Origin: a virus
IMG/VR virus record: IMGVR_UViG_3300022751_000016
Span: 78,451 to 142,450 of that record
Direction: 5' to 3' (one strand)
Length of the DNA stretch: 64,000 nt
Position numbers and translations under genes: made by a program. The notes beneath the pieces were generated by a model. It had not been told where the DNA came from, ran no database searches, and saw only the letters and a program-made list of their open reading frames with translations. This document shows positions 29,101 to 49,707 of the stretch, in pieces (position 1 is the first letter of the stretch; each line of letters begins with the position of its first letter).

Positions 29101-29119
29101 ATATTAAGTTTTTATCCCA

Positions 29120-29151
29120 CAAATATAATGAAAAAATTCCCAAATGACAAG
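29120..29151 (-). promoter_or_regulatory. Bacteroidota sigma70 promoter overlapping a terminator
   Basis: Minus strand CTTG-N20-TATATTTG. Confidence 0.65.
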
Positions 29152-29164
29152 ACAAATGGGAATT
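29131..29164 (-). terminator. intrinsic terminator after the PRS-like gene
   Basis: Minus strand AATTCCCA..TGGGAATT followed by a T-run; similar in sequence to the terminator at 6907. Confidence 0.6.
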
Positions 29165-29169
29165 AATTT

Positions 29170-30436: not shown

Positions 30437-31155
30437 AACTCTATTTTTCTTATTACTTTACTTGTATCTTGTTTTATCACTAAATGTTGAAATCTGTCAT
30501 AGAATTTAGAATCTTCTGCCCTATATTCATAAATAAACCAACCGTGTTTTTGTAACTCTTTTATATCTTCCTTAGTAAACCACTGATATAAATCTTCTAA
30601 TGTCGGAACTGCCGATAACCACCCTACTAACTCTTGGTCAAAATCCATTTTAAGCTCCGCATTAGCACAAAAATTAAACCTATCGTGAATTAATCCTGTA
30701 AAATTTCCATCAAATTGATACCATAAACCCTGCTTAGTTTCTTCATTACAAACTCTGTAAAATGTATTTTTCTTTACTTCTGAAACTAGTTTTGTTAAAG
30801 TGTAATACGTTTCTCGAATCGAACTCCTGTCATCAATGTATATATTCGCGTATAACTTTCTATTTCCTCTAACACCGTAAGGAGCATCTTCATTTATTGA
30901 ATGATAGGGTATATTATTTTCCGCCAAAAAAGATTTAATAAAAACTGTATCTTGATTGCCTGTCCACATAATAATGTAGCAACCAATATCATATAAATCT
31001 CTTACTAGTTGTCTAACCATTTCATACGATTCTCCTGTTCCATGAAAGTCGAAAACAGTGTCGTCTACATCGACTGCGACGATTAAGCTTCCGTATTTAT
31101 TGTATTCCGCCCAGAGTCTTTCATAGGCTGAATTTTCTTTTAAATATTTATCCAT
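30433..31155 (-). CDS. HAD-superfamily phosphatase-like domain fused to an uncharacterised C-terminal domain
   Basis: AVDVDDT, WTG, K..A.IYIDDR; a second domain begins at TFYRV. Confidence 0.75.
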   Translation of the reverse strand: MDKYLKENSAYERLWAEYNKYGSLIVAVDVDDTVFDFHGTGESYEMVRQLVRDLYDIGCYIIMWTGNQDTVFIKSFLAENNIPYHSINEDAPYGVRGNRKLYANIYIDDRSSIRETYYTLTKLVSEVKKNTFYRVCNEETKQGLWYQFDGNFTGLIHDRFNFCANAELKMDFDQELVGWLSAVPTLEDLYQWFTKEDIKELQKHGWFIYEYRAEDSKFYDRFQHLVIKQDTSKVIRKIEL

Positions 31156-31895
31156 TAGTCTGTGATTTCTATTTTATAGTTATACATTGCGTGATGACAT
31201 TCTATGGAAATTAAAGTTTTCCACTCGTCCGCTACTTCTTTTATATACTTTTCTTTTGCTGTTTTATAAGCTTGAAATGCCTCCTCTGGGGTGTTAAAAC
31301 GTCCTAAATCTACATATTCTTCTTTCTTATGAAACCTCGCTTTGTATTTTTTATCTGCCTTAGTAACTCCAATTGGGTATTTTCCTCGAACCTTGTTACT
31401 TTTTACAAACAAAGAGTTTATTTCGTGAGGTACAAAGCAACATGTTTCCTGAGAATAAAAAATATTCCCTTTGACAAAAATGTCTTTATCTAATTCCCAT
31501 CCTTGCATATAAGGTTTCCAATTATCTTCATACCACTTAGCAAAATTCTGAAAACATTTCCAGTCTTCAATAACAAAACAATTTTTATAAGTTTGGTAAT
31601 TTTTCTGATACTTGTCACTATAACTCCTTTGTAATATGCCAGCCCACTTTTTGTATATTTCAGGATGTGTTTTGTTTGTATATTTACCAACCCCTAAATA
31701 ACCAACTCCGTACACAGAAGGATGATTGGGATTTTTTACAACTCCCTCTTTAATGTGCCCATATTGAATATTTTTTAATATTACTCCATCTTCAAATTGT
31801 ACAGCACAGTTGTTGCATCCAAAGTATTCAATGATTTCCATTTTGAGACCTTGCTTGTTAATATACACCTTTCCTACTTTGTTGTTATATCTCAT
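31155..31895 (-). mobile_element. HNH-type homing endonuclease with AP2-like C-terminal domain
   Basis: YKKWAGILQR, W..FQNFAKW, LDKDI..YS..C.FVP..IN, PIGV and LGRFNTPEEAFQAY motifs. Confidence 0.8.
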
Positions 31896-33381
31896 TGATT
31901 CTTTGTCTTATTAAACTGAGTGTTGTTTGATTGTAGTAGTTGCCGTCCTTAAATCTAACTTTTAGTTGGTTTTCTTCTGATGATAATTCTTCTAAACTCG
32001 CTTGGTCTTTCAAATAATACTCCCCATTTTCATCTTTAAACACTACTGTTAAACCTTTTGCTGATTTTTTAATTCCGTCGTCAGTTACGGGGTCTTTCAT
32101 AATTTCAACTAATTCTCCATTTCTTTGTTGTGCAATACATTTCAAAGCCATTCCCCAAGTATCTCTTGTTACCATTTGCATAGAGAAACTACCTTGACCG
32201 AAGAAGCAGTTACTTGCTGCAAAACTTTTAGCTTCTAGGCGCGAAAAGATTTCTTTAATATTATTTTGGTTAATTGCCTCACCATAAATCATTCCTATGT
32301 GAGAATCTAAAACTTTAAAACCTTCTTCGTTAACTGTTCCGCCGAAAACGTCCCAAAGAAGTTCAATTACACCTTTGTTTTTTGGCGAAATGGTTACAGG
32401 TTGTGAATAAGCTTTATTTGTTTTATAATTAATAGGTTCTCCACAAATAATATCTACAGGATTTCCTGAATCAGGTCGAATAACTAATTTACCATCACGA
32501 GCCATAATAATATCTTTCAATTTAGGCAAGTAATCTGTTAAAACTCTCCACAAATCAAAACTGTCTGATACTAGTGACATGATTCCTGTTGGAAACTTAG
32601 TAAGCAGATTTTCATATATTTCAAATTCTCCTTCGATTCCACCCGCTGTCATTTGGCTGTGCTCTGAAGCTCTCACACTAAATACAGGCGTAGATGTTTC
32701 ATCATAATAATGCTGAGAAGCTTTTATTACTGGTAAACTGTCAGAACCCATAGATACAGAAGCAAAAGCTAATCCTGAACCAATCGCCGCATCTAAGCCT
32801 GTTAAACCACGCATAGAGAAATCATGTAACATAAAATCAACAGCTCCAACATTATCTTTATCTGTTTTTAACACTGCCTCTTTAACTATTCTCTTCATTA
32901 AGAGTACATTAGTTGCTGTTGTTAATGGTTGCCACAGTAAATTACTTAGAATAGTTTCAATGTAATTAGTAACCCAAGCAAATCTAATGTCAGTGTTGTA
33001 TAAAAATAACACAGGAATTTTAATAGCAGATTCTGTCCCTTCATCTAAAGTTCTAATCTCTAAAGGTAAATATCCTAAATCATGCAGTTCTTCAATATGT
33101 TTTGTATCGTAATCTACGTCCAAATAAGCTGAAAAATTAGTTTTTACATCATTAATAATATCTTCTTTTCGAATGTTAAAAAAGTTTTCATTAAAATGCT
33201 CCACTATAAAACGGATTGCATATTGGTGTCCAAAATTTAATACTTTACCATTATTACCTTTTGGTGCGTATTTATTACTTCGCGGAGTAAAATTACTGTA
33301 CACGATTTCTGTACCGTCTTGATACATTTCAAAGTGGGAAATTTTATATCCATCTACTAAAAACATACTATTCATTCTCAT
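31885..33381 (-). CDS. nadV: nicotinamide phosphoribosyltransferase-like protein (Nampt or Namat)
   Basis: DGYKISH, HDFSMRG, GSDS, ASEHS, VSDSFD, IRPDSG, IYGE, KDPVTD and KKSAKG motifs. Confidence 0.92.
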   Translation of the reverse strand: MRMNSMFLVDGYKISHFEMYQDGTEIVYSNFTPRSNKYAPKGNNGKVLNFGHQYAIRFIVEHFNENFFNIRKEDIINDVKTNFSAYLDVDYDTKHIEELHDLGYLPLEIRTLDEGTESAIKIPVLFLYNTDIRFAWVTNYIETILSNLLWQPLTTATNVLLMKRIVKEAVLKTDKDNVGAVDFMLHDFSMRGLTGLDAAIGSGLAFASVSMGSDSLPVIKASQHYYDETSTPVFSVRASEHSQMTAGGIEGEFEIYENLLTKFPTGIMSLVSDSFDLWRVLTDYLPKLKDIIMARDGKLVIRPDSGNPVDIICGEPINYKTNKAYSQPVTISPKNKGVIELLWDVFGGTVNEEGFKVLDSHIGMIYGEAINQNNIKEIFSRLEAKSFAASNCFFGQGSFSMQMVTRDTWGMALKCIAQQRNGELVEIMKDPVTDDGIKKSAKGLTVVFKDENGEYYLKDQASLEELSSEENQLKVRFKDGNYYNQTTLSLIRQRINEI

Positions 33382-33729: not shown

Positions 33730-36700
33730 TTATTCTTTATCTCTAGCTATGTACATTAAAGGGCTAAGTTTAAATACGTCGTTTCTCACTTCTGTTTGAT
33801 ATCTCAGATTTTCAAATTGTTGTGCTGGGTCTCTCAATTTAATGAAACTATTTAAGATTGGTGTATTTTTTCTCAAAGTTTCTACTCCTTTACTTTCATC
33901 AAACATATTGGACATCTGAACCATTGTATCATAAGCTAAGACAGGTGATTCCATTATTTGTTGGTAATTTGAATAAATACCTAAATTCGACTGATAAACC
34001 TCACTATTTAATCTAGCTAAGATTAGATTTGTAAATTGTAAGCTATAAACATCTTTTTTGTCAGGGTCATCTGCAATTCCGCGAACTAAGAGTGATAAAA
34101 GCATTAGAGTATTGGCAATTACTACATCCTTCATTACTCTTTTTAAATTAGCTTGTCTTAAATCAACTTCTTCCCAATTTTCAGCATCTTTATTTGTGCC
34201 GTTATACTCATCTTTAAATGCTTTCAAAATATTACCGCCATTCTGTTTCCACTCATTTATTACACCACCTAAAAACTTATAAGTAGAGTTATAACTTCCT
34301 TCTTCTAAAGACCTTGTTAATGAGTTAAACTGTTGTGTTTTAAATCTAGATTCTGTTAGTGGGATAATGAAAGATTTGTGTGTAAGTAATAAATTCCACA
34401 AGAAATGTCTTTGTATCCCTACTTTTTCTTCCTGTGGGAGTTGCATATCAATCTTTACATTTAAATTCTTTGTTTGTGCGCGAATATCATTACTGATACT
34501 TAGTATTTCTTCATCTAATCGAGTTCCTTCTAGATTTATAGCTTGTCCTAGCTGTTCTCTATTAAAACTCACTTCTCCATCTTTAGTTTCTATATAGTTG
34601 TAAATAGGATTGTTATCATATTCTTTCCACATTTCTTCCACTTGCTTCAGAGATTTTCCCTGTCTTCTATGCACTTGTCTGAAAGACTGGAAATTATGTA
34701 TTCTTCCATCTGCAATTCTGTAGTCGTGCAAAGTAGTTAACAAGTTCTTAGCAAATATAGGATAAGCCACTGCTTGATAAAGTCCCATTGCTGTTCTTGG
34801 AGCAGCTCTGGCTAACCACCCATATTGTGAATTTCTAAGACCTACTTCTAAATCAAAGGCTTGAAAAAATTGACCCAAGACATTTAATTTAGCTTCGGTG
34901 TTTACTTGTCCAAATTCTAATAACGAATCTTTAACCAGCTTGTCAAATTCCTTAGAGCCTTTTTTATAAGTGTTGTTTTGCATATATTGTCCTGCCCATC
35001 TTTCTTGAAGTTGTGCCACTTTCATAGTGCCATACCCCGTCAAAGAGATAATAGGAGAGAATCCTAAGTTTTTTAAACTAATGAATTTCATTCCACTTTT
35101 AACAATTTTAGCTCCTGACAATGTTCCAAATGCTGTTTCAAAGGGTAATGTTACTTCCTCTTTAATTCCATAGTATTGATAGTCAATAACAGCTTTAACT
35201 TGTTTGTAAGCATTTGTTGATTCAACAGCTTTTCCATTATATTGTCTTAAATTAATAGAATCTGAAATACTATTAATATCTCCATAAGCATTAACTTTAG
35301 CTTTTCTTAGGAATCCTTCTTTTCCGCGCATAAATAAAGTGTAGAATAAGTCTTCTGTTGCTAAATCTTTACTGTCTCTTAATTTCTGTACATACGGCTG
35401 TGGAATTACATTTATACCATTATATCTTTCTCCTTCTACTTGTTCTTCCTGAGTGTATGCAAAGGTGTCCTTCAAAGCAGCTACAACTGTGGAAATAGAT
35501 GGGTTTGCAACTAAACTTTTAGTTCTTTCTAATCCGTTTTTTCTCACTTGCGGCATTGTAAAATAATTATATCCTGTATCAGCCATACCTTCTGCATCTA
35601 AACTAGCTTCGTTATAATCTAAAACGGCATTATATACTTTAGCTAATTTTTGATTTGAAGAGGAATCAACTATAATTCTATCATTCTCCACTTTTACATT
35701 TTGTCCGAATTTATCATAGAATGCTTTATTTTTAAACTTTGCTACATTTGGTTGTAAATACCCTACTCTTGAAGTTCTATCATAATTAGGGTTTATACTT
35801 CCATCTTCCTGTGCATCATAGAATGAGTAGTTAGGATTTATATTTATGAAATTAGTGGGGTCATTTACAGTGTCTTGCAATAACTCAGTTAAATTTTCCG
35901 TTGTTTGTAATTCTTGTCTAAACTGTGAATAGCTCGCTGGAGCGAATCTTTTATAGTATGGTAGTAATTTAGTCTTACCATATTCTTGCATGAAATAAAT
36001 ATACTCCTCCGTATTATTTAAATCTAATTCTCTTTCATTAGCCAGTCTCTCTATACTTAGAGGTAATGTAGCTCTTTTACCTAGTCTAAATTGCTCAATT
36101 TGATATTTATCATTTAAAAGCTTATTTTTATTTCTTGTTGTTGAATTTTGCCCAATAAAATCTATCAGTTTATCTAATTGTTTCAATTGCTCTTCTTCTG
36201 AGGTAGATGGGTCTATATTCAGTCCTAAATCTGCCACTTCTTTATTGAAAGATTCATTTGACTCACTAATTCCTATTGAAACCTCTCTTTCTTCAAATGT
36301 AGATTTAATGTATTTTGAAGCTTTCTCATAATTAGCTTCCAAACGTTCTTGTACATTTCTAATACTATCTTTTGAAGTTTGAGATATGTCTTCACTTATT
36401 TCAGAAGGACTCCCTTTTTTTGCCCAAGTTTTTAAAATACCACGAACTCTTATTCTATCTTCTTCGATGCTTTGAATAAGTTCTTGTACTTCTGGATTAG
36501 CTTGTTTAACTGTTTCTAATTTATCTAAAATATCTTGACTTTCGGCATCACCCATACTAGACCAGAAAGCTTCACTAAATCCTATGAAGGAATTTAAGTT
36601 TATAGCTTTAATAGCCGCTTCTCTTCCTTTTGTATTGTCTATATTTGTAATTAAATCTAGATATGTTTGAGGTAAGGTTTCTATAGTGAATAAGTCTTCT

Positions 36701-39700
36701 CTTTGCTCTTCCGTTAAAGCTAATTTATTATCTTTTCTGTTTTGAATTATCGTTTTATCCGCCGTTTGTGTATCTCCTGTAATTTGTCTGTACTTTTCTA
36801 TAAACTTTACATCAGAACTAAAAACATTCAAACTGTCCAATTTATTCAAATCTAAGGCTATTCTAGCATCTACAGAAATTTCATTTGAAGAAGCTTTAAT
36901 AATCACTTTACCTGTTTCGTCTCTAACAAGTCTTCCATTAGAATCTCTTTCGTATTCCAATCCCTTTTTTAGCTCACCACTTTCTGTATAATAGTTTTTA
37001 GCCGTTAATCTCCCTCTTTCAAGTATTTCCAAAGCATCTAAATCTGGCAATCTTAAACTAGACCTATCTAAAATACCCTCAGCAGTTCTTGCATGCTTCA
37101 TTATTTGCCCTACACTAGATAAGTATGCGCTGTTCCAAAAAATAGTGTCTTCTGAAATACCTGCTTCCTGATATTTCTTATTTTGAGCATCATAATACTC
37201 CTTAGTTCTTGGTTTTTCATCCAAATCTTGTTCGATACTTAAATCTCTTTCTATTCTTAGAATATTGTCATTATCAACAGGATTTAAATTCAAAGAATTC
37301 TCATCTCTTTGCTGAATAATTTCCTCATCTGTTAGAGTGGAATCTGTAATCACTTGTTTGAAAGCTGTTATAAAGTTTTTATTGTGTGCCTCTGTATTAG
37401 CTTTAAAATCAAATCTACTTAAAATAAATCCATCTTTTGAACCAAATTCAGATATTACTTTCTCTGTATAACCCTCATCCTTAATAGCTTTCTGTAATCT
37501 CTTTACATTATTTTGATTTTCTTGATGTCCAACATTGTGCATATTAGTTATTAAAACTGATAATAGCCCTAAAGTTGGGTCTTTTGAATTAATTAAAGTA
37601 CCTACATTTGCAGCCAAAGCACTAACATCTTGGTCATTTCTATTCATGTAGTTTTCAAAATATTGTCGCATAGATTCAGGATAGCCTCCTCTTCTTAATA
37701 CTTCGTCAATTAGTCTTCTCAGTGTTTGGTCAGTTACTAGACTCTTTGTTGCAATAACTCTTAAAACTGTATCTTGCGTTTCTTTAATTCTAGATTTTAA
37801 AATATCCCAATCATCACCTTTATTGTCTTTGATTAATTCTCCCAATTCTCCAATAGAAGGTAAGGCTTGTTTAGAAACAAACTCAAATAGTACCACTTCT
37901 TCTTGCGATAAAGCATAGTTTTTATTGTTTATAGAGGAATCTTCTAAAGCTTTTTCTAAATACTTAGAGATGTTGTTAGTTATACCCACTAAAGTAGCAA
38001 TAGCCTCTACTTCCGCTGTATCTTGTACTTGCAAGTCTAAATTTTTAAGTTTTAATAAGTCTACACTGCTTATAGGACTTACACCTCTTGTTTTTCTTAA
38101 AGACTTTGCCGCACTTTCTAATTGACTTGCTGTTTTTCTTGCTGCTACGATTAACTTATTTTCAGGAGTTCCTGCTTCTAGAGAATAAAATCTGAAAGGA
38201 TTGTCACTTAAATCTCTATTTGCAAAAAATACACTGTCTTTCAGTAATAAGCTATTAACATCTTCTAAGTATTTACTTAGTTCTTGCGCGTATTCAGGCT
38301 TGAAATAATTTGCTATTCTATCCACAAATGTTTGTATAAATTCCAGAGCTTTTGAAATGAAGTTATTAGATGGAGCAATATTTCTATTCAAAACAGCTTT
38401 TCCAACTATTTTACCTAATATCTCTTTTCTTACAGCCGTTTCTAATAATTCTGGCGTATATTCCTCCGCATACTTTTTTTTATAAATGTCAGCAAACTGC
38501 AACCATTCCTCCGACCTATCAATGTTTCTAAGAATGTCTGCTGTATCTGCATCAGGCATAAATTCTACAATGAAATGTCCTAATTCCTCTGCTAACTCAT
38601 CCTCGCTAATATCTACGCCATCTTTTAGAGCAATTGTTCTCATAGCTATGTCAGCTAAAGCTCTTGCACTAGGGTCTACACCGTTTCTATTTCTATAGTC
38701 TGATACATAATTAGATAGAGAAGTTATTTTAACTCCCATTTTATTCAATAGATTTAAAATACCTAATTGCGCTTCTTTTTCTGTTTTTAATATAGTTGGT
38801 TGTATTATTTGTGTATCTCTTTGAGCTGGGCGATTTTGTGTATAGTATTTTCCTGCTATAAGTTGGTCTGCATTTTCACTGTACTTTGCTTGTATTTGTT
38901 GGTCAGATAATGCGTCAAATTCTTGTTCTGTAATATATGTATCCTCACTTACCAAGATTTTATCTTTAACCTTCACTATGTCAAAAACATTTTCATCTCT
39001 AATAACTCCACCAAATCCTACATAATTAACAGCATCTTCAGATAAAAGTTCTGCATTTACATTCTTTTTAAGTTCAGTTTCTCCTTCTGTTATGAATTTA
39101 TAATCATCGCCAATTCTTATCTTTTCTCCTGATAACAGTCCTTGTTCTATTGCTGAATTTATATACCCTACTTCAGAATCTCTATTTACAGACTTAGTTG
39201 TTGAAAGTAGTTTTGTAAACTCTCCATTCTGTAAAAATCCTGCTTTTATTTCATCACTGTTTTTTAAAGCTTCTTTGTAAGAGTTTGTGTAACTTCCATC
39301 TGCTGTTTGATAAACAAAGCTTACATTATCTTTTTTTGATATGCTTTGCTTAAATAACTTTCCTTTTTCGGTTTGAATATCTGAATCTTTAACAGGGATA
39401 TTATTATTTGCTAAAAATTCATATAAAGAAGTTGCGATTCCTTTTCTTTGTTGATTTTCATTTACTTTTATGATGTTTGCAAAAAACTGACCATCAGAAT
39501 CTTTTTTAAGTCCCATAGTGGCTACTTTTTCACCATTACTATTAATAACACTTAATCCTATTTTTTCAGTTTCTTTCCTATTTTCTAACGAAGATATTTT
39601 ACCGTTTATGCCATCATAAATCTCAATGTAAAATTTTTCTCCGTCTTTTGAAGTGTAAATATTATCTTCTAATTTGGATGAACTCCTATCCCCATTAAAG

Positions 39701-39858
39701 TTCTCGCTGTAAACGTTTTTATAAATATTTAAAGCTTCTTCTGTATCTTTTACTAAGGGAGATTTAGCTATATTAATAAAAAGTTGACTTTCTTCACCAA
39801 CTTCGTTTAAAACTTTTGTTATTTTGTTTTCTTCGTTTCTAATTATAGAACAATCCAT
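33730..39858 (-). CDS. giant polyvalent virion cargo/ejection protein with GNAT-like and metallopeptidase-like domains
   Basis: 2042 aa; VNENQQRKGIATSLY GNAT motif A; EELGH..EILG zincin-like pattern; largely helical body with hydrophobic C-terminal segments. Confidence 0.75.
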   Translation of the reverse strand: MDCSIIRNEENKITKVLNEVGEESQLFINIAKSPLVKDTEEALNIYKNVYSENFNGDRSSSKLEDNIYTSKDGEKFYIEIYDGINGKISSLENRKETEKIGLSVINSNGEKVATMGLKKDSDGQFFANIIKVNENQQRKGIATSLYEFLANNNIPVKDSDIQTEKGKLFKQSISKKDNVSFVYQTADGSYTNSYKEALKNSDEIKAGFLQNGEFTKLLSTTKSVNRDSEVGYINSAIEQGLLSGEKIRIGDDYKFITEGETELKKNVNAELLSEDAVNYVGFGGVIRDENVFDIVKVKDKILVSEDTYITEQEFDALSDQQIQAKYSENADQLIAGKYYTQNRPAQRDTQIIQPTILKTEKEAQLGILNLLNKMGVKITSLSNYVSDYRNRNGVDPSARALADIAMRTIALKDGVDISEDELAEELGHFIVEFMPDADTADILRNIDRSEEWLQFADIYKKKYAEEYTPELLETAVRKEILGKIVGKAVLNRNIAPSNNFISKALEFIQTFVDRIANYFKPEYAQELSKYLEDVNSLLLKDSVFFANRDLSDNPFRFYSLEAGTPENKLIVAARKTASQLESAAKSLRKTRGVSPISSVDLLKLKNLDLQVQDTAEVEAIATLVGITNNISKYLEKALEDSSINNKNYALSQEEVVLFEFVSKQALPSIGELGELIKDNKGDDWDILKSRIKETQDTVLRVIATKSLVTDQTLRRLIDEVLRRGGYPESMRQYFENYMNRNDQDVSALAANVGTLINSKDPTLGLLSVLITNMHNVGHQENQNNVKRLQKAIKDEGYTEKVISEFGSKDGFILSRFDFKANTEAHNKNFITAFKQVITDSTLTDEEIIQQRDENSLNLNPVDNDNILRIERDLSIEQDLDEKPRTKEYYDAQNKKYQEAGISEDTIFWNSAYLSSVGQIMKHARTAEGILDRSSLRLPDLDALEILERGRLTAKNYYTESGELKKGLEYERDSNGRLVRDETGKVIIKASSNEISVDARIALDLNKLDSLNVFSSDVKFIEKYRQITGDTQTADKTIIQNRKDNKLALTEEQREDLFTIETLPQTYLDLITNIDNTKGREAAIKAINLNSFIGFSEAFWSSMGDAESQDILDKLETVKQANPEVQELIQSIEEDRIRVRGILKTWAKKGSPSEISEDISQTSKDSIRNVQERLEANYEKASKYIKSTFEEREVSIGISESNESFNKEVADLGLNIDPSTSEEEQLKQLDKLIDFIGQNSTTRNKNKLLNDKYQIEQFRLGKRATLPLSIERLANERELDLNNTEEYIYFMQEYGKTKLLPYYKRFAPASYSQFRQELQTTENLTELLQDTVNDPTNFININPNYSFYDAQEDGSINPNYDRTSRVGYLQPNVAKFKNKAFYDKFGQNVKVENDRIIVDSSSNQKLAKVYNAVLDYNEASLDAEGMADTGYNYFTMPQVRKNGLERTKSLVANPSISTVVAALKDTFAYTQEEQVEGERYNGINVIPQPYVQKLRDSKDLATEDLFYTLFMRGKEGFLRKAKVNAYGDINSISDSINLRQYNGKAVESTNAYKQVKAVIDYQYYGIKEEVTLPFETAFGTLSGAKIVKSGMKFISLKNLGFSPIISLTGYGTMKVAQLQERWAGQYMQNNTYKKGSKEFDKLVKDSLLEFGQVNTEAKLNVLGQFFQAFDLEVGLRNSQYGWLARAAPRTAMGLYQAVAYPIFAKNLLTTLHDYRIADGRIHNFQSFRQVHRRQGKSLKQVEEMWKEYDNNPIYNYIETKDGEVSFNREQLGQAINLEGTRLDEEILSISNDIRAQTKNLNVKIDMQLPQEEKVGIQRHFLWNLLLTHKSFIIPLTESRFKTQQFNSLTRSLEEGSYNSTYKFLGGVINEWKQNGGNILKAFKDEYNGTNKDAENWEEVDLRQANLKRVMKDVVIANTLMLLSLLVRGIADDPDKKDVYSLQFTNLILARLNSEVYQSNLGIYSNYQQIMESPVLAYDTMVQMSNMFDESKGVETLRKNTPILNSFIKLRDPAQQFENLRYQTEVRNDVFKLSPLMYIARDKE

Positions 39859-39877
39859 TTATTTATGTTTTTATTTG

Positions 39878-39909
39878 CAAATATAAGTGTAAAATTATTT
39901 ATTTACAAG
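39878..39909 (-). promoter_or_regulatory. internal sigma70-type promoter for the 2042-aa gene
   Basis: Minus strand CTTG-N20-TATATTTG, with the -7 box ending about 20 nt before the ATG. Confidence 0.55.
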
Positions 39910-41896
39910 CTAATTCTTCATTTATTTTTTCTTCCTGTGCCTTATTGTAAGTGTTTGTTACATTTAATTCAGGATTAGTTTGTGGTATAGCTGTGTATGA
40001 GGGCAGTATATCAGGAGCAATATTCAACCCGTAAACCTTGTATTCCCCTGTATTTGGAATCATTTTTTCATATATGTTAACATCAGACCTTTGATAAATA
40101 CCATCACTAATTCTTAAAAACGGCTCTTGCGATTGAGCTCCTATTTTACCGTCTTCCATTCTCTGATAATCTTCTTGAAAAATAGGTAATGCTTGCGGAT
40201 AATTTGTATAATAGTCTCTAATGTTTTGTTCATCTGAATCTACGTATTCTCCCTCATTAGGAAAAGTTATCTCAGAATTTATTTTGGCATTGAAGTAATT
40301 TTTAAGCTTAGAATTGTTCTCTATCTCTACCCTAATTGCCTGTAAAGTAATTGGGTCTAAACTTATTGGTTCTATTCCATTCTCTGTTATTTTAAATAAC
40401 TCACTATTCATATTTGCAATGTAGAATTCAGAAACATATTCGTCCGACACTTCTTTCACATCAATGACAAGGTTTTCTTCATAGGTTGATAACTCTATTT
40501 CATTATCTAGCTTTCCGCTCAATAATTCTTTGTAAATTACCATTTTTTGCAGAACTTCTGAATCTATGCTTTCTTGCTCAACTTTTGATAAATCAATTAA
40601 CTTCACTTCACTCTGAATACGTCTTTTTAGCTCTTCTAAGGGTGTGTTTAATCTTTGTGATGCAATATCATATAAACTATCTAAATCTTGTCTTAGAGCG
40701 TCTGTTCTTTGATATAAATTATTTCCTAAAGGTAAAAGTCCTTCATTTTGGAATAGAGTATATGCACTGTCTTTAGTAATTACATTGTACATACTTTTAT
40801 TTCCTTGGATATTTTGAACAATCACTTTAGGAGAAATGTCTACACCAAAGAAATCATCATAAACACTTGCGAATTCATCTATGTTTCCTAAATTAAATAA
40901 GTTGTTAACACTAACTAGAAAATCTTTCATTTCTTCCTGACTTTTGTTGTCATAGAAAGTACCTAAGTTTTTCAAGTCCAATCCTAATTTAGCAGCTTTT
41001 TTATTTATTGTAGACAACATTGTTTGCACTTCCTGTGGAGAATTGTCATAAACGAATGGGTGTACGACTAATAGTTTACTAACTGTATCTCTTAAACTTC
41101 CATTTACATCTTCTTGCAACACCTTGTCTAGCAGATTTTTTGTATCCGTTTGTGGCTTGTCTCTTAATATTCCATTCTCATAAACCTTCTGTCTTATTCT
41201 TTTAAACTTGCTGAAAAAATCATACTTCCCTTTTAGAAATTCTAATTCGGGGTCTTGTATAGCTACGTTGAATTCTTCTTCTTTTAACCCGCCTAATTTT
41301 TGAATAGCATCCTGTTCTACAATGTAGGGATTTTTTATTTGTGTTTTACCAAACTGATTAGGAGTTAAACCATCAGAAACTATGAAATCTTTATTTAAAA
41401 AAGCGTCATTTACAACTGTCTCTTCTGTGTTTGAAAGTTTTATTATAAACTCTTGAATACTGTTTTGCAACTCTAAGTCTCTCAGAATATTTTCTCTTTC
41501 GTAGGAAGTATAGATGTCTAAATTATTTAAACTGTTTCTTGTAGGTTCAGGAAAAAATGCATCTCTCAATTCTTCTTTTAATTGGTCAGAGTTTTCAAAT
41601 CTAGTGTCAGCTAAATTTACTTTCAATTGAGTTAATTCCTGCTCAGACAGAGGCTCTTTAATATTTTCTCTTTCTATGAAATAGACAACATCTTTTAAAA
41701 TAGGTTCTCCATTTTTATCTGTTTCTGTGATTAGAGCGTTGTCTAAAAAACTTTCTGTTTGTGAAACTGCCCAAATATCTGAGGCTTGCTCTTGATTCCC
41801 TGTGAATGTTTTAGCGTTAGCAAATAATATACTAGGTTTTCCATTGTTGGCTTCTATTTTTATAGTGCCATTATCTATAGTTATGTTACAACTCAT
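39899..41896 (-). CDS. virion cargo protein
   Basis: 665 aa; N-terminal ANNGKPSILF..W..T..F..DKNGEP module; lies between two giant cargo genes. Confidence 0.7.
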   Translation of the reverse strand: MSCNITIDNGTIKIEANNGKPSILFANAKTFTGNQEQASDIWAVSQTESFLDNALITETDKNGEPILKDVVYFIERENIKEPLSEQELTQLKVNLADTRFENSDQLKEELRDAFFPEPTRNSLNNLDIYTSYERENILRDLELQNSIQEFIIKLSNTEETVVNDAFLNKDFIVSDGLTPNQFGKTQIKNPYIVEQDAIQKLGGLKEEEFNVAIQDPELEFLKGKYDFFSKFKRIRQKVYENGILRDKPQTDTKNLLDKVLQEDVNGSLRDTVSKLLVVHPFVYDNSPQEVQTMLSTINKKAAKLGLDLKNLGTFYDNKSQEEMKDFLVSVNNLFNLGNIDEFASVYDDFFGVDISPKVIVQNIQGNKSMYNVITKDSAYTLFQNEGLLPLGNNLYQRTDALRQDLDSLYDIASQRLNTPLEELKRRIQSEVKLIDLSKVEQESIDSEVLQKMVIYKELLSGKLDNEIELSTYEENLVIDVKEVSDEYVSEFYIANMNSELFKITENGIEPISLDPITLQAIRVEIENNSKLKNYFNAKINSEITFPNEGEYVDSDEQNIRDYYTNYPQALPIFQEDYQRMEDGKIGAQSQEPFLRISDGIYQRSDVNIYEKMIPNTGEYKVYGLNIAPDILPSYTAIPQTNPELNVTNTYNKAQEEKINEELACK

Positions 41897-41897
41897 T

Positions 41898-44800
41898 TTA
41901 ACATTCTTTTACTTTTTGTACTTCTTTTCTAAGATTTGCTTGTATTTTAGCTTCATTCATTAATTCTTTCAATTCCGCTATTTTTTCAAACTTGTTTTTA
42001 ATACTATCAATTTTATCTTTACCTACAATATCTAAAACTTTTTTAGGAATACTTTCTGATATTGCTTCTCTAAGAATGTTTATATTCACTTGTTGAGATA
42101 TATTTGGAAGATTTTCACTACCTACAGATATAACAGCGTTCTCACTGAAAGCTTGAATAAAAGTATTATCTTCTGGAAAAGTTAAATCTAAATTTGAAGC
42201 TATTTGTGCTGCTTCATTTATTTGCCTATTTATCTGAATTGCTTCATCGCTCAATTCTGCCTCCAAAGATACAACATTATCTTGTAATTCGCTTCTTTTT
42301 TGTACAGGACTTTGATATTCTACATTTCCTAAATTAATAAGGAGTTTTCCTGTACTGAAAGGATTGTTTGTTATATCTACAGCTATTTCTGCGGAAGACA
42401 GTAATTGATTTTTATCGAAAGATTTGTCAGCTAATTCATCAGCGGATAAGTATAATTCCAATTCGCTTAAAGCGTCTGATAAGTTATTCAATTCATCAGA
42501 GGTTTGCCAATCTGTATTTGCGAAATTTATATTATATGTTTCTGGACTTATACCTGAACCTTGCATGAGTCTAATAACTTGTACAGCTTTTTCATCTGCT
42601 GAAATTTCTGTATTCATTATTCTACTTAAATCCTCACTTTTTGATATTTGTGTGACATTCATTTTAATAGGGAACGCTACATTTTTATCTTGATATCTTA
42701 TAACAACAAATGGTATTTTAAATTGTGCGTTTCTTTTAGTGATTCCTTTTACACTTGTTAAGTTTACATCATTTACAGATTTACTGTAAACTACATCATC
42801 TCCTTGCATATATCCTGTAGAAACTATGTTTTCCAAAGCTTTTTCAGTGAATGGTATAGTTGTAGGTTGTGCATTTCCATTTTCATCTAGTTGTGCTTGT
42901 AAATTAGGACTCCCTAACAACACTGTATTAACTGTTGCTGTTTGTCCCGTGCCTACAATTCTATCGGGAGAAAATAGCATTCTTTCTACAGTTTCTTTTC
43001 TTATAGATTTATTTTTTTCAAATGCTGGCGTAATTGCACTATTTCCTGTAGTGGCTGATAATTGACCTAAAACTTCATTACTGCCTTGTCCGTAAATATA
43101 TATGTTTAAACTATTCTCTAACTCTTCTAAGGCTTGGTCTGTTGGATTAGAATTGTATTTTTGAATTAATTGTGCATTATAAGAATCCTCTTTATCTACT
43201 CTTAATTCTAAAACATCTCCTTTTTTCTTAGAATTTACTAATTCAGGAACAGCTTGTACTTTATTACCTTTAGTGTCTTCTGTTATGAAATCTGATTTTA
43301 CAGGAATTAATTCACCATTAGCTAATTCTTCAAAAAGTATATTTTGATTACTTACACCTGTACTTAATATGTGTAGAGTGGATGGAATATTATTTAAAGA
43401 ATTTTCTAAAACTACTAGTCTAGAATTAGTTCCCACTTCTACTTCTATCTCTTTATCTTCCTGTATAATTACAAACTTACTTCCTTCTTTCTTACTAGGT
43501 TTAAATTCTTTAAGTCCCGTTCTTGTTTTAGAGAAGATTTCTGAATTAGGGAAGAATCTTGCAAAACCTTCAATAGATAAAAAACTGATATTTTGTTTTC
43601 TAATTCCATCTCTTTCTGAAACGAATGTCAAAGCATTGTCAGGAGATTTAACTACAGAGGAATTAGTTAAAAAAGGTGTATCAGCTGTATTTATTTCTGC
43701 TGTTAAGAAATCGTAGTCCGTATTGGAATACTCCACTTTAGTTTCAGCTCTCAAAACATTATCTTGTAAAGCTTTTCTAATTCTCAATAAATCTGCAATA
43801 GAACTGTCATACTCATCTACAGAACCTTCTAATATTGTCCAATCTGTTAATTTTTTAGTCAGATTTTGGAATTCTTCTGTATTCTCATTGTTATATAATA
43901 GTTCTTGATATCTGTTAATCTCTTCTTGTGTAGGCTCTTCTGCTGTCAATACCTCTTCACCAATATATTGTAGTGTATAGAGATTCTTATTTAGAATATC
44001 ATTTATCTTTTGGTCTATCTGAGACTTTGGTTTCTCTACTGTTTCTTCTATTTCTATGGTGTCTACATTAAGCTCCTCTGCTCTTTCTGAATTTGCATTT
44101 AATATTTCTTGCTGTTGTATTGTTAGAGTGTTTCCTTTTTTAATTTCCGAGTTTAACTTTTCTAAATAACTATTCTCAACAACCTCTCCTTTTTTAAAGC
44201 TAACATAAGCTTCATTATCTTCTTTTTGTCCTCTTACAATAATTTCTATCTCCGCTTTATTTTCAGCATAACTTTCTAAAGTTGATTTAAAATATTCAAA
44301 TTCATTTTCTTTATAATCACGAGCTTTAAGTATTGAAGACAACCATCCATTCAACAAAGTAAATCTTGTTTCTGGATTCATAAGAGTTTGTGTAGTCTCA
44401 TTAAATCCCTTAACATTTCTTATGGCTCTACTTTGCTCTTGAATTAATTTTTGTACAATTGCATATTTTTGCGGGTCAACTTGTTTTAAAGCTTGTATAG
44501 ATTCACTAAGTTTTCCTATATTCTCTTTTTGGTTGTCCAGCATTTCAATTGTTATGTTAGTACCTGTTAAATTTTTAACATTTATGGCATCAACAATAAC
44601 TTGTTTTTGATTATAAATTTCTGCTTTTTCTTGTTGTACATCTAAAAGCTTTTTAGCATTATCATTTAAAAGTCTAGTTTTTTCTGTGTTATCCTCTTTA
44701 TTAGAGATAGTTTGTAAATCTAAAGTTTTTCTAAGTAGGTCTTGCTCTGTTTTAGCTAAGTATTTTGACTTTCTATCTAATATATTATACTGTTTCTTTT

Positions 44801-46844
44801 TATTAGCTTCTGTTTGGTCTAATACAAAATCTGTATCTATAGCTTGCTCTGCGGAATTACTAGTTGTAATGTCAGACGCTATAAATCTTTTAATAGTGTT
44901 CGTAATATCTTGAGAATCTTTTAAGGCGTGTTTACCCAACACCATATTTGAAGTGATGGCTCTACCTAATTTAATTCTGTCATCATTGGACATCCCTGCT
45001 ATTTTAACATCTCCCAATAAAGAATTAGAGAAATTATTGTAAGCTTCATAGTCTGAGGCTAATTCTTTAAACTCCGAAATTCTAATTTGTTTGTATTGAG
45101 CTGCTTCTTCTACACTTACACCTAACTGTTGTGCTAAATCTGCATCAGGTGTAGCATTCATAGCTGTTTGAAACTGTTCTATTCCATAATCCACTCCACC
45201 TAAAGAATCTAAATTCTCTAGTACAGCAATCATGCTCTCTCTATTAGCTTGTATTTCACCTGTACTGTCGTCTTTTTTATTGGCAGCATCACTTTTTTCA
45301 ATAGCTCTTGAAATTTTATTATTAGCTATTTGATTATTAATTAACATTCCTACGTGGAAATTGTTATAATTATTTACATTAGCTTCTATATTCTGTCTTT
45401 CTATTGCTGAGTCGTTAAACAATCCTTGTCCTGAAGCTACGCTAGAAAATCCACCGCCAAATGCTCCAATTAACATTCCTAGTCCTACTTCTTTCCACCC
45501 TTCTTTTGTACCATATGTACTAGATAAAGCTTCATATAAAGCTTCTTGCATTCCATAGCTAGTTCTAGTGGCATTTTTATCATAACCACTCAACATAAAG
45601 TTTTTAGCTGTTTCTGACGCTACTTTTTGACCTCCTTCTTCATACAGTCCTTCCGTCACTGCATGTTTACCTATTCCATAAACTCGTGAAAATGCTTTTT
45701 GTGCAGTTGTAGCTTGTATAGCTTCTAAAGTTCCTCTTTCTGTACCTTCTTTAAACCCTACTCCCAATAAATTTTTACTGAACCAAGAATTTGATAATTC
45801 AGGTTTAATAGTTTTACCCATAGCAAGTTTACCGAAGGTTGCCATGTTGGAGCTTCCTACTAAAACCATGTTAGCTGTAAAAACAGCATTTGCAGTGTTT
45901 GTCAGATTATTTTTAAAGTCTTGATACTCTGTTCCATCAGGTGTTCGTCCATTTTGGTTTTCAAAGTTTTTTAACCACTCATCTTCAGTGTTTTTCATAT
46001 ATTGTCTAGCCTCCATAGCCGACTCATATCCTGCCGAAGTCATAGTAAATCTCAAAGCATCTAAAGCCTTAACTGTTTGATTTGCTCTTGTTGCTTGAAC
46101 TACAGAGCCTAAAGACAATGGTGCATTTACAGCATTTCTCATTGGTTGAGTAGCTATTCTTTTACCAAATATCCCTGCTGTCTTTAACTCTGCATTTGTT
46201 AAGTTTCTCGTTAAAGCTCCTGCGCCTCCTCTGGCTAATAGTGAAGTTCCTCCTGTAGCATAAGCCCAAATACCTTCAGAAACAATCGCCCCTGCTGTAA
46301 AGCTCAATCCTCCTAGAAAATCATTTGCCCAGAAATTAGCTGAACCTATACTTCCTCCAAATCCTGCTTCTTTTTCTTGTTCTGTATAATAGTTTGGTAG
46401 CTTATAATCTAATTTTGTATTTAAGTCGTCTAACCATTTATCAAAGTCTGAGTTATATGCTGCTGAGAGAGAACCTTCTTTTACACCAACTATTAAATCA
46501 TTTACAATACCGTAAGTGCCGCCTAAAACTGCTGTTCCTGTTTTTGCAAAGAATTTACTAGCTCCGTTTATCCATTTTTCAGAAGTTGATTGTTGTTCTG
46601 CTAAACGTTGTTCATTATTAATTCCTGGAATAAAACTTTCATACTTAGAAACTTTAGTACCATCATTCATTGTCTGGTAAATAGTTTCTTCTTTGTAAGG
46701 TGTAATACTTTCAAATCTAGGTTTAGTGTCTTCCTGAATATTCCATATTGGACTTAAAGAGGTTTGACTGTCTTGTGTCTCTGGCTTGTAGCTTCCTTTA
46801 ATTCTTTCGTTTAAATAAACTATCTTATTAAAATTATTGTCCAT
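41898..46844 (-). CDS. large virion ejection protein (putative membrane-channel former)
   Basis: 1648 aa; Gly/Ala-rich hydrophobic segments, EGLYEEGGQ motif and long coiled regions. Confidence 0.75.
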   Translation of the reverse strand: MDNNFNKIVYLNERIKGSYKPETQDSQTSLSPIWNIQEDTKPRFESITPYKEETIYQTMNDGTKVSKYESFIPGINNEQRLAEQQSTSEKWINGASKFFAKTGTAVLGGTYGIVNDLIVGVKEGSLSAAYNSDFDKWLDDLNTKLDYKLPNYYTEQEKEAGFGGSIGSANFWANDFLGGLSFTAGAIVSEGIWAYATGGTSLLARGGAGALTRNLTNAELKTAGIFGKRIATQPMRNAVNAPLSLGSVVQATRANQTVKALDALRFTMTSAGYESAMEARQYMKNTEDEWLKNFENQNGRTPDGTEYQDFKNNLTNTANAVFTANMVLVGSSNMATFGKLAMGKTIKPELSNSWFSKNLLGVGFKEGTERGTLEAIQATTAQKAFSRVYGIGKHAVTEGLYEEGGQKVASETAKNFMLSGYDKNATRTSYGMQEALYEALSSTYGTKEGWKEVGLGMLIGAFGGGFSSVASGQGLFNDSAIERQNIEANVNNYNNFHVGMLINNQIANNKISRAIEKSDAANKKDDSTGEIQANRESMIAVLENLDSLGGVDYGIEQFQTAMNATPDADLAQQLGVSVEEAAQYKQIRISEFKELASDYEAYNNFSNSLLGDVKIAGMSNDDRIKLGRAITSNMVLGKHALKDSQDITNTIKRFIASDITTSNSAEQAIDTDFVLDQTEANKKKQYNILDRKSKYLAKTEQDLLRKTLDLQTISNKEDNTEKTRLLNDNAKKLLDVQQEKAEIYNQKQVIVDAINVKNLTGTNITIEMLDNQKENIGKLSESIQALKQVDPQKYAIVQKLIQEQSRAIRNVKGFNETTQTLMNPETRFTLLNGWLSSILKARDYKENEFEYFKSTLESYAENKAEIEIIVRGQKEDNEAYVSFKKGEVVENSYLEKLNSEIKKGNTLTIQQQEILNANSERAEELNVDTIEIEETVEKPKSQIDQKINDILNKNLYTLQYIGEEVLTAEEPTQEEINRYQELLYNNENTEEFQNLTKKLTDWTILEGSVDEYDSSIADLLRIRKALQDNVLRAETKVEYSNTDYDFLTAEINTADTPFLTNSSVVKSPDNALTFVSERDGIRKQNISFLSIEGFARFFPNSEIFSKTRTGLKEFKPSKKEGSKFVIIQEDKEIEVEVGTNSRLVVLENSLNNIPSTLHILSTGVSNQNILFEELANGELIPVKSDFITEDTKGNKVQAVPELVNSKKKGDVLELRVDKEDSYNAQLIQKYNSNPTDQALEELENSLNIYIYGQGSNEVLGQLSATTGNSAITPAFEKNKSIRKETVERMLFSPDRIVGTGQTATVNTVLLGSPNLQAQLDENGNAQPTTIPFTEKALENIVSTGYMQGDDVVYSKSVNDVNLTSVKGITKRNAQFKIPFVVIRYQDKNVAFPIKMNVTQISKSEDLSRIMNTEISADEKAVQVIRLMQGSGISPETYNINFANTDWQTSDELNNLSDALSELELYLSADELADKSFDKNQLLSSAEIAVDITNNPFSTGKLLINLGNVEYQSPVQKRSELQDNVVSLEAELSDEAIQINRQINEAAQIASNLDLTFPEDNTFIQAFSENAVISVGSENLPNISQQVNINILREAISESIPKKVLDIVGKDKIDSIKNKFEKIAELKELMNEAKIQANLRKEVQKVKEC

Positions 46845-49707
46845 TCAAGTTATTTATCAGATTTTCTTTCAAATTATTTATCATTATACTGTATTGTAAA
46901 TAAAAAGAACTGTTATTTTTTTCTCTTCCTGTTAAAGGTTGTGAACTTACTACTTCTTGTCCTGTTGTTGGGTCTGTGTAATATATATCTACCCAGAAAG
47001 GATTATTAGGGTCAGATGTAACTTTTGGCGCAGCTGTAAACTTACTGTTTAAAATAGTATTTATTGGCTGTTGATTTCTTTGGAAGAAGTCCGCACCTCT
47101 GTCTTGTATTATTTGATTTGCAAATTCTATTGTTGTTTTGAATGGAGACTTTGAAGGGTCAGTTTGTAATTGTGCAATCATTTGTTGACTCATCACGTCT
47201 GTTAGGTTTTCTGCTATATTCCTCACCTCTACATTTCTTTTTGCAGCACTAGTTTCAGGTAAAAATGCTTGAGGTGTTAATTTAATATCAGGATTAAAAG
47301 GGCTATTTTTCCAATCTTGTTGTGTTTCATTAAATGTGTCAGAAACTGTTGTTGGTAATGTGTCTACATATATTGATGAACGTTCTTGTCCTAATTTTGT
47401 TTTTTTAGTAAATCCAATTCTATATCCTTCTCCTTCTCGTTGTACTGTATAATCATTACTTCCTTCTGGAACTTCTGGTGCGTCTGAAGAATTTAAAACT
47501 GCTGCTCTTAAAGCTCTTGCTGTAGGTGCTTGCCCTTTATCCAGAGTAGAAAATGTATATGCTTTCTTATCACTTAGATTTTTACTATACCCTGCTGATT
47601 TTTCTTCTATTAGTTTTTTAATTCTTTCATTTTCTACATCAAATTGAGTTTTAGCAGCTATTCCTCCTGATAAGTCTCTACCTTGAATTTCTGTAATATT
47701 AGAATCTGTGTAAAATAAATCTCTATTAACTTCCCTCACATCTTCAAAACTTCTACTTAAGTCTTGAGCCACTAATGCATCCGTAGCTTGTCTTTCTCTT
47801 AATCTAGTATCTGCTATTTCTTGATTATTAAATACTCTATTGAATCCATATTCTAAAGCGTTTGCAACTGGCGCGATTACTTTTTTCTCTAAAGCTAGTG
47901 CACCTGTTAAAATATTTCCTGCATAAATTGAAGCTACTCCAGACCTTTCTTGTGTTGAAGTACTTCCTTTTATAGTGTTTAGAATTACCTTAGAATCTGT
48001 AGTTTTTAAACCTTCTAATTTTGCTTTTAATCCTGTTACAGACCTTTCATATGCAGCTCTTACATCACCTGTTAATTTATTATTATATTGTAAATTACTA
48101 CTTGCAAATTCTGCCATAACTCCATATTTTTGAGCAGTACTTAAATTGTTGAAAGAAGTTATATCTTTTCTCCCTAACATTGTAGCAGTTAATGGCATTG
48201 TAGTGGATAGATTTCTAGTATTTAAGTCGGAAGTTCCTTTACCTTGTAACATTTGATTAAAGATATCTGTTGTGGTAGATTGAATCCCGTCTGTTGTGGT
48301 AGATACTATATTTGCATATTGTTTTTGTGAGGCTTGGAAATCTTCCACTAAATTTCTATACTCTGCTGTATTTCCTTTTATCTTAGGGTTTTCTGCATCA
48401 AGATATAATTTATAATTCCACTTTTCTTTCTCATCTAACAATTTATAATTAGGGTCATTTTTAGCTAGATACAAATCTAAAGCTGCTGCCGAACGATGTG
48501 TAGCTTGTCTAATATTTGTAAAATCAGACTGTTCTTTGTCACCCTCTACTTGCACTACGTCTGTAGTTATTCCTAATGCTGCCTTTCTAGCTACATCCAC
48601 TTTTTCTTGACTCTCTGATAAAGACTTTTGTTTTTGAAAGTTAAATTTCTCTACTTCCAATGCATAATTTCTATCATCTTTGGCTATCTCATAAGCCATT
48701 TTATCAACATCAAACTTAGTTATAATATCTCTATCGTATTCTCCCGCAACATCTCTAGTAACTCTATTAGCATAAGTTTGATACGCATCATTAATAGAAA
48801 AATTTCCTGTTTTTATCTTTATATCATTATCGGAAATTGCTTTTTTAAGTGCAGTTATTTGCGGTTCGTATTGAGCAGCTTCTTCTGCTGACATTCCTTT
48901 CATTTCAGCTAATCCTTGCGCTAAAAAATTTTTATTTTTAGAGTTTTCATCAGAAAGTTGTTCAATCATATAGGCATTAGAATCTGTTCCTATAGTACGC
49001 CTAGCGTTTATTTGCATTTGCGCCATAGCTTTAGAATCTAAAGAGTTAATCAAATGACTTTGAATATCATCTGTTGAAACTCGTATACCAAATTTCTGTA
49101 TGTCATATGGATGTGCTAAGTCTCCTGCTCTCTGTGTACCTAAATATTGTTCCTTACCGTTTTTATCTATGTATGTTTGTGCGTTCTTGTTTAGTAATTC
49201 AGGAACATTTACATAATCATGGTATACCAAATTTCCCACTTTATCTGTTTCTCCACTCATAAAGCTTTGAACTCCTGCCATATTTAAAGCATCTTGATAA
49301 TTACCTTCGTCAAACCTGTCAGGACTTTTTTCTTTTAGTCTTTCAACATCTTTTGAAAAAGCTTGTATCTTTTGACTTTGGTTTATTTCATTCAAAACTG
49401 TTGGGTCTTGAACTATATTTTTTATTTGACTGTTAATTGCTCTGGCTACTCCTGATTTAGATAAATCTCTATCTCCTGAGTTATTTACAAGCTGTGTAAC
49501 AGCATCTAACTTACCTGCCAAGTATTCTTTACCTTTTTGACGTAAGTTTTGTGCTAAAGCCCCGTATTGGTCTACGGTATTTTGTATGGCGTTCTGAGCT
49601 AAATTATACTTCTCCTCTTTAGCCATTGCAACTTTAAACAGTATATCAGTAACATCTGTAGAAATTGTTGTACCATAATGGACGGGTTTGCTGAGATAAT
49701 TACTCAT
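46834..49707 (-). CDS. virion cargo/ejection protein
   Basis: 957 aa, helical and Cys-free, in the position typical of internal virion proteins. Confidence 0.7.
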   Translation of the reverse strand: MSNYLSKPVHYGTTISTDVTDILFKVAMAKEEKYNLAQNAIQNTVDQYGALAQNLRQKGKEYLAGKLDAVTQLVNNSGDRDLSKSGVARAINSQIKNIVQDPTVLNEINQSQKIQAFSKDVERLKEKSPDRFDEGNYQDALNMAGVQSFMSGETDKVGNLVYHDYVNVPELLNKNAQTYIDKNGKEQYLGTQRAGDLAHPYDIQKFGIRVSTDDIQSHLINSLDSKAMAQMQINARRTIGTDSNAYMIEQLSDENSKNKNFLAQGLAEMKGMSAEEAAQYEPQITALKKAISDNDIKIKTGNFSINDAYQTYANRVTRDVAGEYDRDIITKFDVDKMAYEIAKDDRNYALEVEKFNFQKQKSLSESQEKVDVARKAALGITTDVVQVEGDKEQSDFTNIRQATHRSAAALDLYLAKNDPNYKLLDEKEKWNYKLYLDAENPKIKGNTAEYRNLVEDFQASQKQYANIVSTTTDGIQSTTTDIFNQMLQGKGTSDLNTRNLSTTMPLTATMLGRKDITSFNNLSTAQKYGVMAEFASSNLQYNNKLTGDVRAAYERSVTGLKAKLEGLKTTDSKVILNTIKGSTSTQERSGVASIYAGNILTGALALEKKVIAPVANALEYGFNRVFNNQEIADTRLRERQATDALVAQDLSRSFEDVREVNRDLFYTDSNITEIQGRDLSGGIAAKTQFDVENERIKKLIEEKSAGYSKNLSDKKAYTFSTLDKGQAPTARALRAAVLNSSDAPEVPEGSNDYTVQREGEGYRIGFTKKTKLGQERSSIYVDTLPTTVSDTFNETQQDWKNSPFNPDIKLTPQAFLPETSAAKRNVEVRNIAENLTDVMSQQMIAQLQTDPSKSPFKTTIEFANQIIQDRGADFFQRNQQPINTILNSKFTAAPKVTSDPNNPFWVDIYYTDPTTGQEVVSSQPLTGREKNNSSFYLQYSIMINNLKENLINNLNGQ

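Follow-up and report, generated by a model that had tools for sequence, protein, structure and literature searches.

Paired terminal cysteines in giant cargo proteins of a Bacteroidota phage lineage and a possible head-to-tail chain

Three giant proteins with cysteines at their adjoining ends

Analysis of a 64,000-nucleotide stretch of viral DNA (the window; positions 78,451 to 142,450 of the 142,450-bp virus record IMGVR_UViG_3300022751_000016) revealed a run of giant genes on the minus strand, three of which encode consecutive proteins, here called A, B and C (Table 1), that carry cysteine (Cys) only at the termini that adjoin in gene order. The single Cys of A is its last residue, 1648, and none is found at its N-terminus; B contains exactly two, Cys3 and Cys664 of 665; and C has only Cys3, with none at its C-terminus. 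An earlier note on this DNA, which had read these positions off the translations, was exact: a scripted count over the open reading frames (ORFs) returned the same residues, including the Cys-free N-terminus of A and C-terminus of C, and zero Cys in the neighbouring proteins of 957, 981 and 354 amino acids (aa). The Cys1648 codon of A is followed by TAA, with the ATG of B one base further on. Start codons in the window are unambiguous, and those of B and C, which both begin MxC, are the first possible starts after an in-frame stop.

Both the scarcity and the placement of these residues are statistically extreme. Against a background of 1.40% Cys, obtained from the other 130 ORFs of the genome, A, B and C together contain 4 Cys where ~61 are expected (binomial P ~1e-21), and all six cargo proteins contain the same 4 in 6647 aa (P ~6e-35). 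The probability that all four would lie within three residues of junction-side termini is ~1e-10; among the 217 ORFs of the genome, Cys occurs at residues 3-6 in 5.5% and among the last three residues in 3.7%. The P values for depletion and for placement thus exclude chance.

This marine phage is related to Cellulophaga phage phi17:2, which together with phi4:1 is the nearest named phage (~26% identity for B), and the homologues of A, B and C in these two phages are annotated as virion structural proteins. Both are cultured and both carry the terminal-Cys signature; in phi17:2, the only Cys of gp039 (1957 aa) is its last residue, that of gp036 (1914 aa) is Cys3, and gp038 (517 aa) has Cys4 and Cys516. 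An exhaustive phmmer search with B gave 242 representatives, and the 150 listed, at no more than 50% mutual identity, were analysed. Their 153,075 aa contain 276 Cys, of which 267 are terminal and only 9 internal. Both an N- and a C-terminal Cys are present in 123 of the 150; the N-terminal one stands at residue 3-6 in 125 of 127 cases, and the C-terminal one is followed by 0-2 residues in 136 of 140. In a 73-sequence alignment of B, C3 and C664 are the sole invariant columns.

The partners of B showed the matching halves of this pattern. In all 15 distinct A homologues the only Cys is one of the last two residues, and 23 of the 26 listed C homologues begin M-x(1-3)-C-[TSK]-[VI]-x-R, usually without a further Cys. 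A scan of viral contigs with the single B sequence gave no matches; it succeeded when an alignment of C was used as the query instead. The signature is equally conserved in a group of gut phages that includes csAssE-Sib. Across homologues the terminal Cys are kept down to ~22-26% identity, and the pattern follows gene order in ~20 distinct loci, so that neither of the sequence-based outcomes that the earlier note had named as refuting its proposal was seen. The terminal-Cys pattern is a deep family signature and not a quirk of one phage.

Table 1. Features of the cargo gene block, in window coordinates
Feature	Position	Strand	Remarks
Protein A	41898-46844	-	1648 aa, putative chain starter; phrog_32390 match
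Protein B	39899-41896	-	665 aa, putative middle link
Protein C	33730-39858	-	2042 aa, putative chain terminator; phrog_37651 match (virion structural protein)
Codon of Cys1648 of A	41901-41903	-	TGT, last residue
Codon of Cys3 of B	41888-41890	-	TGT
Codon of Cys664 of B	39905-39907	-	TGT
Codon of Cys3 of C	39850-39852	-	TGT
N-terminal plug domain of B	41723-41896	-	residues 1-58, includes Cys3
C-terminal tail of B	39902-40015	-	disordered linker 628-647, helix 652-663, Cys664, Lys665
N-terminal plug domain of C	39685-39858	-	residues 1-58, includes Cys3; homologous to the B plug
957-aa Cys-free cargo protein	46834-49707	-	phrog_32131, virion structural; outside the proposed chain
GIY-YIG/NUMOD homing endonuclease	49700-50584	-	294 aa; between the 981-aa and 957-aa cargo genes
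981-aa Cys-free cargo protein	50663-53608	-	phrog_36695, virion structural
354-aa Cys-free protein	53605-54669	-	SLT lytic transglycosylase domain
307-aa protein	54666-55589	-	starts MTCTCE, 9 Cys in first 49 residues
2212-aa Cys-rich protein	55603-62241	-	ends ..EICE, 40 Cys

Cysteine pairs follow breaks in the polypeptide

The strongest evidence that the terminal Cys belong together in pairs comes from relatives in which the genes are fused or split, where Cys pairs appear and disappear with the breaks in the polypeptide. Where A and B, or B and C, are naturally fused, neither junction Cys is present. A-B fusions (P0137, P0140 and L009-L011) are single proteins of 2200-2400 aa whose one Cys is C-terminal, and the gene that follows is a C with Cys3; L007 agrees with this at its C-terminal end, although its 5' end is cut off. 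In the reciprocal B-C fusion, P0151, a protein of 2380 aa retains Cys3 as its single Cys, and the only Cys of the A encoded upstream is the last residue.

Fission had the opposite effect. In many relatives (L012-L017), B is a big protein of 1400-2600 aa whose Cys are confined to the vicinity of its two ends; in L012, where it is unsplit and 2469 aa long, they stand at residues 5 and 2468 only. In L087, a gene for a 228-aa GIY-YIG-like protein interrupts the one for a big B, and the two resulting pieces are colinear with the L012 protein at 67% identity. The first piece, B1 (400 aa), has Cys5 and a new last-residue Cys400, and the second, B2 (1802 aa), combines a new Cys3 with the old C-terminal one, Cys1801. 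Whenever genes have fused or split, the two Cys that disappear or arise are the ones on opposite sides of the break. In the cargo gene block, genes seem to have been split repeatedly by mobile endonucleases.

A simple parity rule describes these loci. In nearly every locus with all partners visible, N-terminal and C-terminal Cys are equal in number, and there is one Cys pair fewer than there are polypeptides. The arrangements A + C (L021), AB + C, A + BC, A + B + C and A + B1 + B2 + C thus have one, two or three pairs, and in all of them an N-terminal Cys is missing from the first protein and a C-terminal one from the last. Intervening genes do not break the rule, and neither does a distance of ~10 kb to C, which is seen in the gut csAssE-Sib group.

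These locus patterns bear on the possibility that the signature reflects chance, a gene-calling artefact or a nucleotide-level signal at gene junctions. Some database homologues without an N-terminal Cys had looked like exceptions. However, the B representatives P0054 and P0073, checked in context, both start at a contig edge, and P0024, one of the three apparent exceptions among the C homologues, has a wrong start call, with the motif present upstream. A junction signal also fails to account for Cys that persist when the junction is interrupted by other genes or stretched to ~10 kb, and the start codons are unambiguous and the Cys statistics far beyond chance. This explanation is effectively refuted by the conservation statistics, the locus patterns and the fission in L087.

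A second alternative is that each terminal Cys acts alone, as an anchor to the portal, inner capsid or tail, as a packaging or ejection signal, or as a modification site. Fusions speak partly in its favor, since a fused junction loses its termini and any terminus-specific role would vanish with them. So does P0109 (L088:1940-5929), a 1329-aa protein that combines the C-terminal half of A with B and has Cys5 and Cys1319; the upstream ORFs on its 7.4-kb contig are Cys-free, and its N-terminal Cys therefore has no visible upstream partner. The partner of P0109 may be encoded elsewhere, or the protein may be an exception to the parity rule. A solitary role would nevertheless leave unexplained why the first protein has no N-terminal Cys and the last no C-terminal Cys, and why N- and C-terminal counts remain equal as the chain grows from two to four polypeptides; a fixed virion partner would need a variable number of sites. 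We consider this alternative unlikely.

A putative covalent chain and its chemistry

The N-terminal regions of B and C provide further evidence for joining. The two proteins are homologous over their first 58 residues (hhalign probability 99.3%, E 3.9e-20). In the AlphaFold2 model of B (predicted local distance difference test score, pLDDT, 90), this region, which we call the plug, consists of Cys3 followed by a beta-hairpin and then helices, and AlphaFold models give the plugs of B and C the same predicted hairpin-plus-helices fold, followed by a disordered linker. A plug profile run against the whole genome found exactly two copies, those of B and C. A profile search retrieved 37 further proteins, every one with an N-terminal Cys, and every full-length middle link among the matches has a C-terminal Cys as well. 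At its other end, B is modeled as a 20-residue disordered linker leading to a helix and then to the Cys.

The earlier note had proposed modeling each C-terminal helix with the N-terminal domain of the next protein, and we predicted the complex of B residues 480-665 with C residues 1-230. The pair scored 0.51 against 0.02 for the best control, with at least 60% of contacts shared among runs and a partner pLDDT of 69-70. In calibration, the mark used was reached by 58 of 80 solved complexes and by 2 of 110 mismatched pairs. In the band up to 0.60 lie only 7 of the 80 solved complexes, together with both passing mismatches, so that a pass in this band is more likely to be false than true unless the pairing had been probable beforehand. 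The predicted B-C interface thus stood out from its controls and at the same time fell in the weak band, and it lends the B-C pairing weak support.

Another alternative is a different disulfide wiring, in which B is cyclised through Cys3 and Cys664 and A pairs with C, or in which the terminal Cys form homodimers. Such arrangements fit the parity of Cys counts equally well, and the 20-residue disordered linker could let the C-terminal helix of B reach its own N-terminus. However, the Cys lost or gained in fusions and fissions are always the pair facing across the break, and alternative wiring would require surviving Cys to swap partners at each such event, which is less parsimonious; the score of the heterologous pair of B tail and C plug also argues, weakly, for B-C contact. 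We regard these wirings as very improbable.

From conservation, gene order, the fusions and fissions and the N-terminal domain shared by B and C, the linear 1648-665-2042 chain first suggested in the earlier note gains support. We think it probable that A, B and C are Cys-purged internal virion proteins, that is, ejection or cargo proteins, joined end to end through their terminal Cys, most likely by disulfides. The C-terminus of A would be joined to the N-terminus of B, and the C-terminus of B to the N-terminus of C, by an intermolecular disulfide that would form once the virion leaves the reducing cytoplasm. In each pair, the upstream partner would offer a Cys 0-2 residues from its C-terminus, behind a flexible linker and helix, and the downstream partner one at residue 3-6, in most cases where a small folded plug begins. 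Because the links would lie at the very ends of the chains, the joined product would be a nearly unbranched thread with a stub of a few residues at most, and the extreme terminal position of the Cys is expected if the product must stay a thread.

We infer from this geometry how such a thread might be used. It could pass an ejection channel as one unit, its parts leaving in a fixed order and being delivered in fixed stoichiometry, and would come apart on reduction in the host cytoplasm. Such a thread would amount to a polyvalent cargo protein in which redox-cleavable staples take the place of peptide bonds, and the retained Cys pairs would be a deliberate exception to the general suppression of Cys in ejected proteins. 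Disulfides are the obvious chemistry since virion proteins meet an oxidising medium after lysis and since disulfides have been seen in another Bacteroidota phage virion: the tail and portal-vertex proteins of crAss001 have inter-subunit disulfides (PMC10172136). Those of crAss001 brace static tail and capsid parts between folded domains, whereas the ones proposed here would connect the ends of ejected cargo.

Several observations weigh against this chain or against its proposed chemistry. Sequence alone cannot show a bond, the complex score lies in the weak band of the calibration, and P0109 has the unpartnered N-terminal Cys described above. The tails of A and B have no homology beyond the Cys. 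phi17:2 gp038 and some other proteins have an N-terminal Cys without a recognisable plug, so that it is the Cys and not the plug that is universal; for the same reason, docking of plug and tail would not be a general step. No Erv1/ALR, thioredoxin or glutaredoxin genes were found in the phage's own genome, so that oxidation would have to be spontaneous after lysis. Finally, gut phages of the csAssE-Sib group, whose habitat is anoxic, show the signature with equal strictness, and this keeps a non-disulfide link in play.

Such a link would join the same partners end to end through a bridging metal ion or other thiol chemistry inside the head. In addition to the anoxic gut habitat and the missing thiol oxidase, acidic or amide residues often stand next to the C-terminal Cys (F-D/N-C, I-D-N/E-C). 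On the other hand, two thiolates make a poor metal site, and the surroundings offer no conserved His or further Cys, C3 and C664 being alone in their invariance; that only two Cys are left after a fusion also suits a disulfide better than a four-ligand site. Non-disulfide chemistry therefore appears quite unlikely to us.

Other roles for a terminal Cys were tried and rejected. For a split intein or trans-splicing, the upstream Cys is last or penultimate and leaves no room for an intein fragment, and there are no Hint/intein Pfam matches in A, B or C. A bacterial lipoprotein would need a signal peptide and lipobox, and here the Cys stands at residue 3-6, right after the start codon. Intein, lipoprotein and Ntn-hydrolase-type readings are all ruled out by the position of the Cys and its loss in fusions.

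Extended to the whole lineage, the disulfide-linked chain becomes a broader proposition that we hold to be evenly poised: that a marine and gut Bacteroidota phage lineage delivers effector cargo as a redox-cleavable, head-to-tail disulfide train, in which fission is tolerated by the gain of a new Cys pair and which is threaded through the tail as a unit and uncoupled by cytoplasmic reductants. For podophages, whose short tails must let several giant proteins pass a narrow channel in the right order and numbers, a covalent end-to-end chain, if it exists, would be a simple physical answer and a new principle; polyvalent cargo would be joined by reversible staples, and the survival of giant genes split by mobile elements would be explained. 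The chain is directly testable because the signature is present in the cultured phages phi4:1 and phi17:2. The signature itself (a start of M-x(1-4)-C, a Cys in the last three residues and no other) may serve as a marker for ejected cargo in metagenomic phages.

Known systems, domain content and neighbouring genes

Cys-free ejection proteins and polyvalent proteins are already known. Cys suppression has been described as a hallmark of ejected proteins, explained by their passage through the periplasm, with two podophage ejection proteins containing 0.00075% and 0.0055% Cys compared to 0.865% in the proteome (PMC11445570). Internal Cys in the family studied here amounts to 0.006% against the 1.40% background, a suppression of the kind seen in those podophage proteins. 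Schitoviridae gp71, gp72 and gp73 and N4 gp50 resemble A, B and C in being giant internal virion proteins that are encoded in one operon and are almost Cys-free (PMC11445570). In those proteins, however, Cys is simply absent, whereas A, B and C keep one per internal terminus, and the dedicated N-terminal domain with a terminal Cys is found here and not in the Schitoviridae and N4 ejection proteins. We found no sequence relation and no clear fold relation to the latter.

Polyvalent proteins offer the other comparison. They carry many effector domains delivered with the DNA (PMC5512222), and relatives of B and C carry such domains, namely ART-PolyVal (58 bits), LPD23, DUF3293 and Methyltransf_23. 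On account of these effector domains, the chain looks like a polyvalent cargo protein that is split over several genes and would be re-joined after translation. Polyvalent proteins as described by Iyer et al. (2017) consist of one chain, which an MPTase peptidase is proposed to cleave into parts, and disulfides are not mentioned in that paper (PMC5512222); in contrast, the cargo here is spread over two to four chains that are apparently re-joined via terminal Cys. No account of terminal Cys pairs or of the plug domain was found in a literature search, nor of the way in which they come and go as genes are fused and split.

Domain searches with the window's own proteins gave few assignments. A Pfam scan of A, B and C found no family above cut-off, B matched no family in either Pfam or PHROG, and the PHROGs label for the families of C and of the 957-aa and 981-aa proteins is virion structural. 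No MPTase (zincin-like) domain was matched by Pfam, and C has an invariant E424-E425-x-x-H428 motif. Residues ~65-340 of C (38400-39660, minus strand) gave many matches to the GNAT acetyltransferase fold, with Foldseek probabilities up to 0.99 and E values of only 0.01-0.05, which makes the matches weak. The N-terminal half of A (residues ~56-640) is conserved and rich in invariant Gly and Asn, with a Gly-rich hydrophobic stretch near residues 441-466; it may be a membrane-active part of an ejection channel.

Sequence searches of the PDB with A and with a profile of B gave nothing useful, and fold searches of B gave no convincing fold, the best rows being generic helical bundles with Z no higher than 7.3. 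B showed a weak resemblance to 6vr4, the two-barrel virion RNA polymerase gp66 of the crAss-like phage phi14:2 (Foldseek E 8.4e-3, template modeling score 0.21; VIA Z 6.1, root-mean-square deviation 11.9 Å), which is too weak to use; RpoB chains ranked after it, at E >0.1, and no sequence match accompanied the resemblance. The catalytic DxDxD motif was sought in A, B and C and not found, and because of its absence the idea that A and B form a split virion RNA polymerase was set aside.

Near the cargo genes, the SLT domain of the 354-aa protein is typical of ejected proteins that breach the cell wall. In the T7-type ejectosome, the internal core proteins gp14, gp15 and gp16 are ejected before the DNA, one of them having a lytic transglycosylase, and the window is alike in that the SLT protein adjoins the cargo genes. 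The T7-type proteins assemble non-covalently and are not known to carry a terminal-Cys signature.

Further observations concern the C gene in gut phages. The annotated C of csAssE-Sib (L002, OR575929) lacks a plug only because the gene is frameshifted in the record. This homologue is present as two overlapping ORFs (L002:26430-27275 and 27175-32832), of which the first (281 aa) opens with the plug, MTSTC.., and continues into an ORF of 1885 aa in another frame; the frameshift could be either a sequencing error or real. In the L005/L006 gut clade, C lies ~10 kb from A and B and has one extra conserved internal Cys near residue 1894 or 2160, and an IS605 OrfB (TnpB-like) gene lies directly upstream of the C homologue (L005:8280-9467, L006:8747-9853).

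Two last observations come from comparison with phi17:2. Its gp043 (2289 aa) corresponds to two ORFs in the window, of 2212 aa and 307 aa, with the 307-aa protein aligning to the last 256 residues of gp043. This is again a split giant virion protein with Cys at both new ends, but it is Cys-rich, and the resemblance may be a coincidence. In addition, phi17:2 gp026 (L001:30164-30592), ~7 kb downstream of the cargo block, is annotated as a cysteine dioxygenase, an odd gene for a phage with a Cys-based feature.

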